A stretch of 20,633 nucleotides of DNA from a virus (lineage: Duplodnaviria; Heunggongvirae; Uroviricota; Caudoviricetes), in IMG/VR virus record IMGVR_UViG_2606217106_000021. One strand, 5' to 3'. Positions 12,662-16,892 of this stretch are shown one piece after another (position 1 is the stretch's first letter; each line of letters starts with the position of its first letter). Below the pieces are notes generated by a model that did not search any database, was not told the origin of the DNA, and saw only the letters and a program-made list of their open reading frames with translations. The position numbers and the translations under genes are program-made.

Positions 12662-13375
12662 TCAATAATCAAGCCCTTGCCTGGATACATATCTGTCTGG
12701 CGGGAAGCCATAATAGCGGTGAAATACAGAAATAAAGTAGGACCTGCTTGAATAACCGCATTTTTCTGCTATAGCCTGTCCATATCCATGCCGGGAACAT
12801 AACATATTTACAGCAACACGCATCCGCTCTTCCAGCAACAAGCGACTGAACATGCCCCCTTCATTTTTCAGTTTTGTCTTTAACAAACTCTCACTCATAT
12901 GCAACTGTAGAGCAATCGCACCAAGCGTCCAGCTTGCTGATATATCTGTCTGAATTATCGCCCTGACTTTGGCACTTATGCTGGATAAACATCCACTTAA
13001 AAACAATGACATCCGTTCATCTGTTTCAAACAGAGACAGGCAGGCCATCATAAGAAACATATCCGTGGCCTCTCCGGAAAATCCCTGGCTGGTAATTAAA
13101 GCCGCAGCCAACGCAGGATTGTTGGGTTCCAGCAACAGGTAAAGCGGAATGTCAGTCAGACGAGTCCTCGTCAGCTTATGCTGACTTTCCAGATATTGAC
13201 TTACGACGGATTCGCTTATATCGACAATTTTAACTTTGCCATAATGCATAAGGAAAAGCTCCCTGATGCATTTGGTGGCCAGAACAACTGAGCCTGGCTT
13301 AAGTGACAACGTATCCTTTTCAAGAAAAATATTAATTGGGGAGCAAACCATGATAACTGAACAGACAACAGCCAT
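12662..13375 (-). CDS. AraC/XylS-family transcriptional regulator, AppY-like (237 aa)
   Basis: C-terminal AraC-type HTH (AIAEKCGYSSRSYFISVFHRYYGFPP). The N-terminus MAVVCSVIMVC...KIVDI resembles AppY (MDYVCSVVFIC...RIVDI, recalled from memory). AT-rich; the 13376-13509 gap upstream could hold its own promoter. Confidence 0.85.
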   Translation of the reverse strand: MAVVCSVIMVCSPINIFLEKDTLSLKPGSVVLATKCIRELFLMHYGKVKIVDISESVVSQYLESQHKLTRTRLTDIPLYLLLEPNNPALAAALITSQGFSGEATDMFLMMACLSLFETDERMSLFLSGCLSSISAKVRAIIQTDISASWTLGAIALQLHMSESLLKTKLKNEGGMFSRLLLEERMRVAVNMLCSRHGYGQAIAEKCGYSSRSYFISVFHRYYGFPPDRYVSRQGLDY

Positions 13376-13495: not shown

Positions 13496-13523
13496 CAAAT
13501 AAAAAGCCTTCAGGACTGAAGGC
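13496..13523 (-). terminator. Minus-strand terminator overlapping the stop of the 65-aa ORF
   Basis: Stem gccttca/tgaaggc with a ggac loop; on the minus strand it is followed by tttttatttg. Confidence 0.45.
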
Positions 13524-13707
13524 GTCTGTAACAACCGCACTGATAGTCTGCCAGACCCGCCATAACAAGCTGGGTCAGTATTAACTGGCAGCGTTCGCGT
13601 GAAAGGTAAGTATTCTGCGCAATCTCCCCGACTGTCGCCGGTTCGGTAACGCTTAATTCATCAAACACAACTCTGGCGGTTTCTGTCATATCCTGCTGTT
13701 TCAGCAT
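13510..13707 (-). CDS. Hypothetical small protein (65 aa), possibly a DNA-binding protein
   Basis: ORF with its own terminator hairpin at its 3' end. I did not recognise a family; the idea of a small helix-turn-helix fold is only an impression from composition. Confidence 0.4.
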   Translation of the reverse strand: MLKQQDMTETARVVFDELSVTEPATVGEIAQNTYLSRERCQLILTQLVMAGLADYQCGCYRRLQS

Positions 13708-13831
13708 GTCTTTTTACCCTTTCCGGTTAACGTGACATACCAATAACTCTTGTCTAAAAAGCCAGCAAGATAAAAAGCCAGTATTCACGACCACCAGCGT
13801 GTTTACTGTACTGCACCAAGTTTACAGGTAC

Positions 13832-13853
13832 AAAAAACCCGCTCAGTGGCGGG
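13832..13853 (-). terminator. Minus-strand rho-independent terminator after the ~205-aa cargo gene
   Basis: Minus strand reads cccgc-cactga-gcggg followed by ttttttg. Confidence 0.55.
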
Positions 13854-13985
13854 TTTAAGTTGTGTGGCGAAGTAACCACTCTTAACACACTAATAGCATT
13901 TTTGTTATAACACAAGTAGCTCATTCAGTATTTTTAGAATCTTGACTTTCTTAAGCACGGCGAACTCTGAATACCAAACATAAAA

Positions 13986-14603
13986 TCAATTATCTTCCAG
14001 GCCGGATGCTATCAACGAAAGCCTCTCAAAAAACGCTGTAGCAGCCTTGTCCAAAGTTGAATAAGTACTGTATTCTCCGTGTTCGGGACCAACCACTACC
14101 CATGGTCGTCTTTTTGGGATTCGGGACTTCTCAGAAATCACTGTTCCAGATATACCAATATCAATTGTTACACCTGTTATTATTTTCTCTTCATCTCTTT
14201 CCCTGAACTCAATTGCCATAAATGCCGTTTTTTTTCGTTTCCCGTTTTTAAAAAAATCAAATAAAGCAAAGCGATGCTCATTAAAATCAACACCCCATCG
14301 TCCTTCAGGATAAAGGGCATGAAAGTTGTCATTTACGCTCTGCATCGTCTCATAAGCTTTAACTTCTAAATCTCCATAGTGCATAGATACCGCGCAGGAG
14401 TCACTGGGTAACTGTATTTTCCCAAGATTGAAAACCTTTACTGCTCCAGAACTATGGCATCTTGCCCGCAATTTATCCCCATTTATACTAATCGGAGAAA
14501 TATTCCTTAATGTTCCGGGCTGGCTCCCTCCTAAGTAAACGACTGTTAAAGATTGCTTATTTTCAATTGCATCAACTAATACATGCTCTACATTTTTATC
14601 CAT
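13986..14603 (-). CDS. Hypothetical protein (about 205 aa from MDKNVEH...; six-frame ORF extends to 14630), unrecognised family
   Basis: AT-rich ORF directly downstream of Q. GGGAGG lies 5 nt before the ATG at 14601-14603. Its own terminator is at 13832-13853. No motif recognised. Confidence 0.6.
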   Translation of the reverse strand: MDKNVEHVLVDAIENKQSLTVVYLGGSQPGTLRNISPISINGDKLRARCHSSGAVKVFNLGKIQLPSDSCAVSMHYGDLEVKAYETMQSVNDNFHALYPEGRWGVDFNEHRFALFDFFKNGKRKKTAFMAIEFRERDEEKIITGVTIDIGISGTVISEKSRIPKRRPWVVVGPEHGEYSTYSTLDKAATAFFERLSLIASGLEDN

Positions 14604-14678
14604 AATAACCTCCCAATGAACAGGTATCATCAGGAGGTTATAATAAAATATGATTATTTACTTTGATTGAATTTATTA

Positions 14679-15065
14679 CTATATGTAACAATCAATTTCT
14701 AAAGATACCCCCAACATTGCCAGACAACCGTCAATAAACCCTTCAGCTTTCTGCAGTCTGATAACAACCTGATTAAGTGATATCCCCAGTTTTACCCCCA
14801 ACACCCGTAATGTAACCCCATACACATAATACATTTCCAGTAATTCGTATTGATACGGTTCCTTTTTCTTAAGAACTGTCATCGCAGAGCTAATGATCAG
14901 GCCATCGTCATCGCTACATTGCGGGCGGGATTTTACTTTCGAAGGAATTAATCCCTTAAAACCTGCAGCAACAGATGACCATTCCACATCCTCGTGATTA
15001 TTTGCCACCCATGCCCCCCAACGTTCAAGAACCATTTGAATATCACGCATCAACTTTCTCCACAA
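14679..15065 (-). CDS. Late-gene antiterminator Q (phage 82/21 type, QuuD-like; 128 aa)
   Basis: MRDIQMVLERWGAW...GFKGLIPSKVKSRPQC...LQKAEGFIDG resembles my recollection of E. coli QuuD. An alternative start is at M6 (15050). Confidence 0.8.
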   Translation of the reverse strand: MWRKLMRDIQMVLERWGAWVANNHEDVEWSSVAAGFKGLIPSKVKSRPQCSDDDGLIISSAMTVLKKKEPYQYELLEMYYVYGVTLRVLGVKLGISLNQVVIRLQKAEGFIDGCLAMLGVSLEIDCYI

Positions 15066-15067
15066 AA

Positions 15068-16063
15068 TCAGGCCAGCACGCCTATTGCCAGCGCACGATC
15101 GATAAAACGAAATATCAGCTCCAGCTGGGAGCCATACTTCTCTTCAAATGCCACGGTATCCGCATGCAGCTCGTCGTGATGCTTTCTGCACAAAGGCAGC
15201 ACGAAGAGGTCATGCGCTTTTGTACCCATTCCCCCCTGACCGTGGCCTATCAGGTGGTGGGGATCATCAGCAGGCTTTCCACAACATGCACACGGCTGCG
15301 TCTTAACCCAGCGCGTGTACTTTTCATTAACCCAGCGGCGACGTTTGGGGCGTAACATAAAAGACTCCGGCGACTCCGGATCCACTTTCAGCGCCAGCAC
15401 CTTTTTCGCTTTATCCTGGATGATGCTGGTGGCAGGAACCGAAGGCACAAGGTCACTTTCCCGGGTGACAGACGGCACAACAGGCTTCGGTAATCTCAGT
15501 GCCTTACGGGCTGCACTTTCCGGTAAGGCATCCGCCAGGTCATTACGAATCAGCCACCAGCACAGTTCCGGCATTGTCACAACGTGACTGTCATCAAAAC
15601 CGAGATCCCGACGCACAACAGACAACACCCAGCGGGCACAGTTATCCGTTGCCATTGATTCCAGCCGTTCCGTGAACTGATCGCGCAGCTGGTTATCGCA
15701 GTGCCAGCACAGACGGATTGCGCCCGGAGCGTGTCGCATTGTGGTCATGTTCTCGCTGTGCCATCCGGAATGAGGCCACTGGCAGCCTTTTTCACGAAGT
15801 AACCAGCTTTCAAGACATTCCACGCCACCAGCACGACGGATCACTGCCTCATGGCGGAACACGGCCCGAACGGCAGGATCATCCGCCAGCGGTTGTGATG
15901 CCGCCGGAACGGCACCACTGGCGAAAGATGAATAACGCTCCGGCTCAGGCTCCAGCAGGACACGCCCCTGCATAAACAGGGGCATCAGCTCTGAACCTGG
16001 CCTGAACAATACGATCCCCATACGCGGGGCAATTTCAGGGGTCAGTAGTGCTCTCACAGTCAC
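15068..16063 (-). CDS. DUF968 (YdfU-like) protein with a C-terminal Cys/His-rich HNH-like motif (331 aa)
   Basis: C-terminal CACCGKPADDPHHLIGHGQGG...LCRKHHDELH. The position immediately upstream of Q matches the quuQ-ydfU arrangement I recall in the Qin prophage. Confidence 0.65.
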   Translation of the reverse strand: MTVRALLTPEIAPRMGIVLFRPGSELMPLFMQGRVLLEPEPERYSSFASGAVPAASQPLADDPAVRAVFRHEAVIRRAGGVECLESWLLREKGCQWPHSGWHSENMTTMRHAPGAIRLCWHCDNQLRDQFTERLESMATDNCARWVLSVVRRDLGFDDSHVVTMPELCWWLIRNDLADALPESAARKALRLPKPVVPSVTRESDLVPSVPATSIIQDKAKKVLALKVDPESPESFMLRPKRRRWVNEKYTRWVKTQPCACCGKPADDPHHLIGHGQGGMGTKAHDLFVLPLCRKHHDELHADTVAFEEKYGSQLELIFRFIDRALAIGVLA

Positions 16064-16064
16064 C

Positions 16065-16892
16065 TCAATGAACGGTATCGAGCAGCTTTAACAGCTCAGG
16101 AAATCGGGATTCGAAGAAATGCGGCTGCGTCTCGCGCGGATTTGCAGGACTGGTGATGTTCTTGCCGAACATGCAGCCTTTCGCGGTCAGCGACCAGAAT
16201 TTTTTGATGTTGTTAATCGCGGTACGGCTGTATCGTTCGCGTTGTTCAACGATCCCCAGCTTCGCCATCTGGTGATATGCCTGATTAGCCGTCAGGCGGA
16301 TACCATACTGCTTCAGCAGTGCACTCAGCGACAGCGTAGGGCGGCTTGAACCATCTGGCGCATCAGCAGGTGCATCAATGGCATAGATCGGCATAAGTTC
16401 AGGAAGACCAGCTACCTTTGATAATTTCTGGTATGCACCAAGTTTCGAGGAGTTTGACAGATTTAGAGTCTTTGCTGCTGATTCAAGCAGAATGACCCCG
16501 GATTTAATTTTGTCGGATGTGGTTTCTTCTGGTGATGAATTATGAAGCGCATCAAAAGTACGTATCACTTTTAAGCTGAATGCCGGGCTGATCCACATTG
16601 CATATGCATAGACCAGCTCTTTACAGACATACGTCCCACCATTGCGCCCCTGAATGGTGATGACAGGAATACTACGGGAATCTCCCGTAGTTTCTTCTTC
16701 CAATAATTCCACAAGAGCCTTCGTTTCAGGACGACGCATAAACTCGTGAACTTCCAGCGAACGGGAGGAGCGATTCTCACCAGCGGCAAGAAGAGCAGCT
16801 TTCTGAAGGTCGTTAAGACAGTAGTTAGATTCGAAGTACTGACGCACAGAAACGCCATCAATTACAAGCAACTGATTCATTGGTTTCTCCAC
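16065..16892 (-). CDS. KilA-N domain protein (275 aa), possible antirepressor-type regulator
   Basis: The N-terminal region LLVIDGVSVRQYFE...ITIQGRNGGTYVCKELVYAYAMWISPAF fits the KilA-N signature (GGTW/Y...A.WISP.F). The C-terminal half is unrecognised. Confidence 0.75.
   Translation of the reverse strand: MEKPMNQLLVIDGVSVRQYFESNYCLNDLQKAALLAAGENRSSRSLEVHEFMRRPETKALVELLEEETTGDSRSIPVITIQGRNGGTYVCKELVYAYAMWISPAFSLKVIRTFDALHNSSPEETTSDKIKSGVILLESAAKTLNLSNSSKLGAYQKLSKVAGLPELMPIYAIDAPADAPDGSSRPTLSLSALLKQYGIRLTANQAYHQMAKLGIVEQRERYSRTAINNIKKFWSLTAKGCMFGKNITSPANPRETQPHFFESRFPELLKLLDTVH

Follow-up and report, generated by a model that had tools for sequence, protein, structure and literature searches.

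What does a small, AT-rich gene directly behind the Q antiterminator gene do for the prophage that carries it? We address this question in a 20,633-nucleotide (nt) stretch of Caudoviricetes DNA (IMG/VR record IMGVR_UViG_2606217106_000021; hereafter the window, meaning the whole stretch analysed). The window represents a lambdoid prophage inserted at argU/intD (the DLP12 site), and an identical prophage occurs in Escherichia coli S88, MS7163 and related strains. An earlier note, made from the letters of the window, could assign the gene to no family and proposed an undescribed function in defence, exclusion or host interaction. We find that the gene product begins with a WYL domain. Several RefSeq genomes already label it 'WYL domain-containing protein', so the domain assignment is not new; the architecture departs from every characterised WYL protein. 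Our tentative reading is that the WYL protein is an accessory conflict protein, which would bind single-stranded DNA (ssDNA) without catalysis and give its carrier element a benefit in defence or exclusion.

A two-domain protein with a WYL barrel

The gene and its parts are as follows.
13986–14603, minus strand: coding sequence of the stand-alone WYL protein, 205 amino acids (aa), stop codon included (WP_000360285.1)
14409–14603, minus strand: N-terminal WYL domain, residues 1–65
13989–14348, minus strand: C-terminal alpha+beta sandwich domain, residues 86–205
14599–14647, minus strand: 5' leader hairpin of the WYL gene, from folding and allele comparison

The earlier note had placed an open reading frame (ORF) of about 205 aa at 13986–14630. 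The ORF is real and lies on the minus strand, which the note left unstated; its full span encodes 214 aa from the first ATG, and the 205-aa product corresponds to 13986–14603. RefSeq WP_000360285.1 takes the 14603 start, which is the only start kept in the second E. coli allele (as GTG instead of ATG), and M1 of the 205-aa version is 95% conserved across the family. The longer version, starting at the ATG at 14630, was rejected: in the second allele the upstream ATG is out of frame and behind stop codons. Three further observations of the note held up. The Shine-Dalgarno sequence GGGAGG lies at 14614–14609, 5–6 nt before the 14603 ATG; the gene starts 75 nt from the Q stop codon (14679–14681); and this accessory gene directly after Q is AT-rich, with a GC content of 39.6% (0.32 at third codon positions) and 0.253 in the spacer, against 51.3% for the window. 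The Q gene is also low in GC (0.421).

Profile searches and structure prediction with a fold search, both proposed in the note, found the WYL barrel. An AlphaFold2 model from a 76-sequence alignment has a mean predicted local distance difference test score (pLDDT) of 83 and shows two domains with a disordered linker between them. The N-terminal domain is predicted to form a helix and a five-stranded Sm/SH3-like beta-barrel, the fold of the WYL superfamily (PF13280), and carries the signature motif Y23-x-GGSQPG-xx-R33-x-I-x-P37. A profile of the family matches the WYL segment of DriD among PDB chains (E 2e-4), aligning 'vvYhgGSqPGavReIaPisi' with DriD 'fRYEGGSTPGRTREVTPLGV'; the WYL models of PADLOC match the protein weakly (E 0.0014–0.0066).

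The alignment with DriD extends to the residues that touch its ligand. In crystal structures of DriD with ssDNA, Tyr168, Ser172 and Arg178 hydrogen-bond the ssDNA backbone (PMC9186387). Their counterparts by alignment are Y23, S27 and R33, which are conserved in 97%, 97% and 100% of the family. Two further residues, K56 and F58, are invariant (100%), R46 and K62 are more than 90% conserved, and R48 is also conserved; the ligand-contact residues of the WYL superfamily on beta2, the beta2-beta3 loop and beta5 are thus present. With these contacts kept, the phosphate-binding or ligand platform of the WYL domain is intact. The N-terminal domain is basic (isoelectric point, pI, 9.4). By its likeness to DriD, the WYL protein is predicted to bind single-stranded nucleic acid, most likely ssDNA and possibly single-stranded RNA (ssRNA).

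The C-terminal domain, modelled alone, reaches a pLDDT of 85 and a predicted template-modelling score (pTM) of 0.73. It forms a two-layer alpha+beta sandwich in which one helix and three strands (H-EEE) precede a disordered acidic loop (134–160), followed by two strands and a helix (EE-H). Its conserved residues are G/W102-103, K119, G121 and R166-P167-W168. The acidic loop is variable, with a family median net charge of -6; the basic segment after it, to which R166-P167-W168 belong, is conserved and has a median charge of +6. The loop may be autoinhibitory towards this neighbouring basic segment, and the sandwich would supply oligomerisation, partner binding or a second nucleic-acid-binding surface. 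A Foldseek search of BFVD returned nothing at E <= 0.001, and neither NCBIfam nor a single-protein sequence search of the PDB gave a match with the WYL protein. The gene thus encodes a two-domain, non-enzymatic protein, which would act without catalysis.

Departure from known WYL regulators

The best-known relatives are regulators in which a helix-turn-helix (HTH) domain, a WYL domain and a WCX domain follow one another (DriD, PafBC, CapW, BrxR). The sensor module is common to these regulators and the window protein, and here the likeness ends. The N-terminal HTH is missing, as the protein starts two residues before the helix that packs against the barrel and matches no HTH domain in Pfam or NCBIfam; and what follows the barrel is not the WCX dimerisation domain. 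The regulators adjoin the defence or DNA-damage operon that they control, whereas the neighbours of the WYL gene are Q and a late-promoter block and, elsewhere in the family, unrelated cassettes or phage genes. Having neither HTH nor WCX, the protein would work like the sensor half of such a regulator, but outside the BrxR/CapW/DriD/PafBC family and with the known promoter-binding route unavailable to it. Our literature search turned up no study of this family or its accessions, nor any of a WYL protein that stands alone.

A large accessory family, with purifying selection in E. coli

The WYL protein matches phrog_8498, a family of unknown function, over its full length (E 3e-126); no well-characterised phage housekeeping protein emerged, a match that the note had named as contrary to its proposal. 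An initial homologue search found 9 proteins and a profile built from these found 93; when the profile search was made exhaustive, the yield rose to 954 cluster representatives (at 50% identity), of which 608 score E <= 1e-10. Across the 954 clusters of this accessory family, members are nearly all stand-alone proteins of 190–205 aa.

Within E. coli the WYL gene is present in 74 of 5,426 complete genomes and comes in two alleles: 52 genomes carry it at >=99% nt identity, and 22 carry an allele of ~78% nt identity (70% at the protein level). The ratio of nonsynonymous to synonymous substitution rates (dN/dS) between the alleles is 0.226 overall; the N-terminal domain alone gives 0.15, the C-terminal domain 0.225 and the linker 0.8. 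The WYL ORF is a real gene under purifying selection, not a chance ORF. Frameshifted or shortened copies also exist (P0003, P0006).

Distant homologues travel in several kinds of mobile DNA. Some are cassettes in integron arrays, found in a Pseudomonadota metagenome-assembled genome (L006, 3000–12588), in Dokdonella (L008, 5200–10400) and in metagenomic contigs (L007, L009). These arrays string together small, unrelated genes on one strand, among them ParE/Phd and HicAB toxin-antitoxin pairs, HEPN (HEPN_Swt1), DUF4160/DUF2442 and many genes of unknown function. In L006 and L008 each small gene is followed by a ~110-nt repeat (GCCTAAC...GTTAGGC), which we read as attC sites, and an integrase fragment adjoins the array in L008. 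The homologues in L006 and L008 thus have the marks of integron cassettes, a description that does not apply to the window copy.

Others sit in phages and prophages. On two IMG/VR contigs (L055, L056) the homologue comes immediately after the gene for a CI-like repressor, within a divergent Cro/CI immunity region, and in a Spongiibacter-type prophage it lies between the large terminase gene and Rha, within the head module. The temperate Pseudoalteromonas phage PY3 carries, between its integrase and a LexA-like repressor, a WYL module fused to a 150-aa domain X (L071, 2006–3115, PY3_2); Pseudoalteromonas luteoviolacea encodes domain X on its own, in a gene immediately 3' of the WYL gene (L011, 768–1220). 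Domain X is the C-terminal half of the uncharacterised phrog_31886 and is fused to the WYL module in P0145 as well. This fusion and fission, seen in a Pseudoalteromonas subgroup, is the one real partner link, and domain X is absent from the window. Elsewhere the fusion partners are zinc ribbons and transmembrane segments only, the latter in a few membrane-anchored relatives. A conserved partner gene was considered and rejected, as the genes 3' of the homologues in L006, L008, L009 and L011 are mutually unrelated. A profile scan of genome contigs for homologues returned only 7 loci. Taken over these contexts, the WYL gene behaves as an autonomous accessory gene of mobile-element conflicts, unlike a housekeeping gene, and they lend some support to the function in defence, exclusion or host interaction that the note had proposed.

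Position between Q and a probable late promoter

The features that bear on expression of the WYL gene are these.
14679–15065, minus strand: Q antiterminator gene (Q21 family); the RefSeq start at 15050 gives 123 aa
13876–13915, minus strand: PR'-like promoter, inferred from comparison of six loci
13832–13857, minus strand: hairpin and U-run, tR'-like backbone terminator, from fold and conservation
13510–13707, minus strand: 65-aa winged-helix-like gene (phrog_331), first backbone gene past the terminator, not cargo

Q belongs to the Q21 family. It matches PF06530 (E 1.5e-47) and the Q21 chains 6JNX/6P18 of the PDB (E 5e-10), with only 36% identity to Q21 across residues 13–86. In its C-terminal half, residues 73–107 weakly match a Sigma70_r4-like HTH.

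Beyond the WYL gene lies a block that resembles a late promoter. A -35 hexamer, TTGTGT (13915–13910), is followed by a 17-nt spacer, a -10 hexamer, TAGTGT (13892–13887), and an invariant GTTAAGAGTGG (13886–13876), inside which the start site of PR' is predicted at ~13880. The window and five related loci share this layout past their cargo: a -35-like hexamer, N16-19, TAnnnT, GTTAAGAGTGG, and a hairpin with a T-run ~25 nt on. The variable upstream part of the block co-varies with Q subtype across three pairs of loci.
Window and L067: Q identity 84%, TTGTGT-N17
L005 and L070: Q identity 83%, TTTAC(G/A)-N16-TATGCT
L002 and L003: Q identity 58%, CTAACG-N18/19

The order of elements recalls phage 21. 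There the Q stop is followed 7 bp later by the -35 of PR', then by a spacer holding the Q-binding elements (QBEu/QBEd), the -10, the start site, the sigma-dependent pause element (SDPE) 'TAAGCTG' and a terminator within 50 nt (OL657228.1; Yin et al. 2019, bioRxiv 10.1101/651190). The window shares the Q family and the promoter, start and terminator order within ~50 nt; it differs in that 0.5–1.5 kb of cargo lies between Q and the promoter block, as in the five related loci, and in that the QBE sequence of phage 21 is not conserved. We rejected a late promoter directly after Q, in the manner of phage 21, because the sequence after Q is not conserved between prophages with 84%-identical Q, whereas the block after the cargo is. 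Apart from the gene's own leader, the 75 nt after Q are unlike between the two WYL-carrying prophages, and in L002 and L003 opposite-strand cargo starts 12–15 bp after Q, too close for a promoter to fit between them. On this comparative placement, PR' probably lies at 13915–13887 and tR' at 13857–13832.

The terminator belongs to the phage backbone. Folding confirmed the hairpin and T-run at 13857–13832. Of 5,426 E. coli genomes, 1,438 have the block that holds it (window ~13904–13740), and most of these lack the WYL gene; in the annotations of phages SfV and Ayreon the same hairpin is given as the rho-independent terminator behind Q. It is thus not the gene's own terminator, as the note had taken the hairpin at 13832–13853 to be. 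The tR'-like hairpin would end a short PR' leader as well as non-antiterminated read-through from Q and the WYL gene.

A PR'-like promoter downstream of the WYL gene would make that gene the last cistron of the early-right (PR) transcript that contains Q, rather than part of the late operon. By its placement, the WYL gene would be co-transcribed with Q. Two proposals of the note give way here: that the gene occupies the slot of toxin genes in Stx-type phages, and that it is co-induced with the late operon.

The 65-aa gene follows the terminator block in every related locus examined and would head the transcript that depends on Q. It is present in ~1,400 E. coli genomes and weakly matches TrmB/MarR-like winged-helix proteins. 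Rfam gave a sub-threshold match to STnc130 at window 13742–13864 on the plus strand (28.3 bits against a gathering score of 55, E 0.086), overlapping the terminator block on the opposite strand; this match is probably not meaningful.

The leader of the WYL gene is itself structured. Positions 14647–14599 fold into a hairpin of ~20 bp (-23 kcal/mol, z = -5.25, equalled by 0 of 200 shuffles) that pairs both the Shine-Dalgarno sequence and the AUG (14603–14601). The allele of 78% nt identity keeps it (-23.1 kcal/mol), and changes in the 3' arm turn two G.U pairs into Watson-Crick pairs. No Rfam family matches the hairpin. A conserved hairpin that occludes both signals argues that translation of the WYL gene is deliberately held down or depends on an activating event, which might, speculatively, be cleavage by RNase III or transcription from a start within the hairpin.

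A hypervariable cargo slot linked to Q subtype

The slot between Q and the PR'-like block is hypervariable: from one related prophage to the next its genes are unrelated, and they may point either way.
L002, an ST131 strain: two opposite-strand cargo genes
L003: one 339-aa opposite-strand cargo gene
L070, phage PhiR40_1: one 148-aa opposite-strand cargo gene
L005, phage 4A7: an OmpC-like porin gene
Phage SfV: slot empty, with Q, 106 bp, the same hairpin and then the 65-aa gene

In three respects the WYL gene looks like a phage moron: it is present in some backbones and absent from others (74 WYL carriers against 1,438 backbone carriers), the slot takes alternative cargo, and its GC content is deviant. 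Of the promoter and terminator that a moron may own, we found weak promoter candidates only, and the downstream terminator is that of the backbone.

A second mode of cargo insertion is seen in prophages with a different, 251-aa Q (L004; L069, phage Ayreon). They hold a 141-aa cargo gene past the terminator, flanked by two copies of a 24-nt hairpin that are 100% identical (L004 2324–2347 and 3001–3024; L069 terminators 1113–1156 and 1792–1830). By this arrangement, cargo enters downstream of tR' by terminator duplication in the 251-aa-Q lineage, and upstream of PR' in the Q21-type lineage.

Full-length Q of the window type occurs in 74 of the 5,426 E. coli genomes, equal to the count of WYL carriers, and in E. 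coli the WYL gene is found with one Q subtype only. About 700 other E. coli genomes match just the first 150–177 nt of window Q. The 3' half of Q is thus specific to the 74 WYL-carrying genomes, so that a mosaic junction falls within Q, where the conserved N-terminal part meets the C-terminal part with the HTH. Together with the WYL gene and the PR' subtype, that C-terminal half forms one module, co-inherited and co-diverging: between the two WYL-carrying prophages, Q is 84% identical in amino acids, the WYL protein 70%, and the PR' region ~84% in nucleotides. Hitch-hiking is the simplest reading of this linkage, because recombination with other lambdoid phages would not readily remove DNA that lies between a specificity determinant and its target site; a functional link with Q is the less favoured reading. 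The note had suggested checking whether homologues recur at the Q-proximal slot of other prophages: they do in E. coli prophages with this Q subtype, whereas most of the family is in integron cassettes or in phages with no Q nearby.

The second allele lies in the Stx2 prophage of E. coli OkiPb01681 (L067, 2041–5598), where the order is DUF968, Q, WYL, PR'/tR' block, 65-aa gene, a frameshifted DNA methyltransferase gene, tRNA Ile/Arg/Arg and stx2A. Like Stx-type late-operon cargo, then, the WYL gene occupies the interval between Q and lysis genes of a lambdoid prophage. The slots differ: stx2 sits in the more distal one, downstream of PR'/tR' and past the methylase and tRNA genes, and the WYL gene lies upstream of PR'.

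Proposed role and alternatives

We tentatively favour a role in conflict between mobile elements. The WYL protein would bind ssDNA intermediates of competing mobile DNA, such as superinfecting or co-induced phages or incoming conjugative DNA, and so interfere with their replication or recombination. It would be made at prophage induction together with Q, its translation throttled by the leader hairpin. We favour this reading because the DriD-type motif is kept with its contact residues, the gene is under selection, it forms a single-gene module and its relatives occur in conflict-type contexts. It is favoured further by the membrane anchors of some relatives, the presence/absence polymorphism, the position upstream of PR', and a hairpin suggesting that low expression is needed.

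Precedents for such a role are the prophage morons and single-protein exclusion or defence genes, among them rexAB of lambda (after cI), HK97 gp15 and BstA. The window gene is likewise accessory, presence/absence polymorphic, deviant in composition and in a moron-type position; some WYL homologues also stand right after a CI-like repressor, as rexAB does. BstA joins a nucleic-acid-binding domain to an uncharacterised second domain, as the WYL protein would. The likeness stops short of sequence or fold, in which the WYL protein has no kinship with any of the three, and for the E. coli copy we found no dedicated promoter.

Several observations weigh against a role in conflict. At the level of the protein, the Pfam PF13280 match scores 16.5 bits (E 0.0085), under the gathering score of 21.8 bits. 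The W-Y-L tripeptide is absent from beta4, where the offset from the DriD alignment places R46-A47-R48; DriD is likewise degenerate here, with N-Y-L (PMC9186387). The C-terminal domain has no convincing structural relative; neither WCX domains nor enzyme folds appeared, and no recognisable effector domain was found in the protein. PADLOC-DB v2.0.0 gave only weak generic WYL-domain matches and no other defence-system model, and five other cargo proteins of the same slot had no PADLOC match and no significant Pfam match. As for expression, no promoter site above chance was found upstream of the WYL gene, only weak candidates picked by eye (8 of 12 positions matching) that are common to both alleles. 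If the gene is transcribed together with Q, a quiescent lysogen would make little of its product or none, and a role in the lytic cycle or in counter-defence suits that pattern no less well. The restriction of the gene to a single Q subtype could instead reflect a Q-related function, and one homologue belongs to a 209-kb Dolichospermum phage, a cyanophage.

Counter-defence is an unlikely reading, and the strongest rival. The protein would act as a lytic decoy, sequestering ssDNA or a nucleotide-derived signal from BrxR, CapW, RecA/SOS or other sensors and thereby blunting induced immunity. Its gene is co-oriented with Q and begins 75 nt on, with no terminator or convincing promoter between them, and lies upstream of PR'; the product is small and non-enzymatic, like known sponge proteins, and has the ligand platform of the host sensor DriD. 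The homologues in the cyanophage and inside a head-gene module suit a decoy too. Such a role sits poorly with a family that is abundant as chromosomal integron cassettes and has homologues in immunity-operon and integrase-proximal positions expressed in lysogens, and an SD-occluding hairpin would be odd for a protein needed in stoichiometric amounts.

We consider it improbable that the protein is a post-transcriptional regulator whose Sm-like barrel binds ssRNA, as in WYL1 or Hfq, and tunes phage or host transcripts, possibly its own leader. The conserved structured leader immediately upstream and the basic N-terminal domain speak for it. Yet the closest matches in sequence and structure are ssDNA-binding WYL proteins, those to WYL1 and to Hfq/Sm proteins being weaker, and DriD strongly prefers ssDNA over ssRNA (PMC9186387). 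The ribbon-helix-helix (RHH) domain and CRISPR context of WYL1, a Cas13d accessory protein, are missing, and no Hfq-type hexamer motif is evident.

Still less credible is a protein that modulates late transcription driven by Q, and with it the timing of lysis or the output of Stx2, by binding the non-template ssDNA or nascent RNA of the paused PR' complex, or Q itself. In E. coli the gene is wedged between one Q subtype and its cognate, co-diverged PR' subtype, and one allele lies upstream of stx2. Most family members, however, are in integron cassettes or in phages without Q nearby, and hitch-hiking explains the linkage more simply. An ordinary housekeeping gene or a decaying remnant is very improbable: a possibly defective S88 prophage and the damaged copies P0003 and P0006 hint at decay, but the gene is in only 74 genomes against 1,438 that carry the backbone, dN/dS is low in both folded domains, and the family is broad with a confidently predicted fold.

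Extending the conflict role from the window protein to its family, we put forward a further and doubtful proposal: the family may be an unrecognised single-gene immune or counter-immune module, made of an HTH-less ssDNA sensor and a new C-terminal effector or adaptor fold, spread in integrons and as a moron; in lambdoid prophages it would be locked in place between the DNA-binding half of Q and the cognate PR'/QBE, and gated in translation by the hairpin.

Neighbouring genes and state of the prophage

The remaining genes around the locus, all on the minus strand, are listed here.
16065–16892, minus strand: KilA-N gene
15068–16063, minus strand: DUF968 gene
12662–13375, minus strand: AraC-like gene, 237 aa
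12384–12633, minus strand: cluster of tRNA-Met, tRNA-Arg and tRNA-Arg
Beyond the tRNA cluster, minus strand: SASA-family esterase gene and lysis genes

The AraC-like gene is a second cargo gene, inside the late leader. Its product resembles YdeO, GadX and HilD (E 4e-31 to 1e-19), far under their equivalog cut-offs, and could serve as an acid-resistance or virulence regulator. Annotation of the S88 copy (L001, 4201–6127 and 21539–22393) gives a frameshift in the large terminase gene and a truncation in one Rha gene, so this prophage may be defective; its WYL gene is nevertheless intact.

Implications

Nearly all that is known of WYL domains concerns transcription factors that activate defence or DNA-damage responses and in which the WYL domain is the sensor half. 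If our reading is true, an HTH-less WYL family with a new second domain would be an ssDNA-sensing module put to a direct, non-transcriptional output. With ~950 clusters in integrons and phages and only 205 aa, it offers a small and tractable candidate for a new defence or anti-defence gene. For the Q21-family lineage, the locus points to cargo held between Q and its promoter, co-inherited with that specificity pair and expressed with Q rather than under Q control. Toxin output could be affected too if the protein influences induction or late transcription, since one WYL allele resides in an Stx2 prophage.

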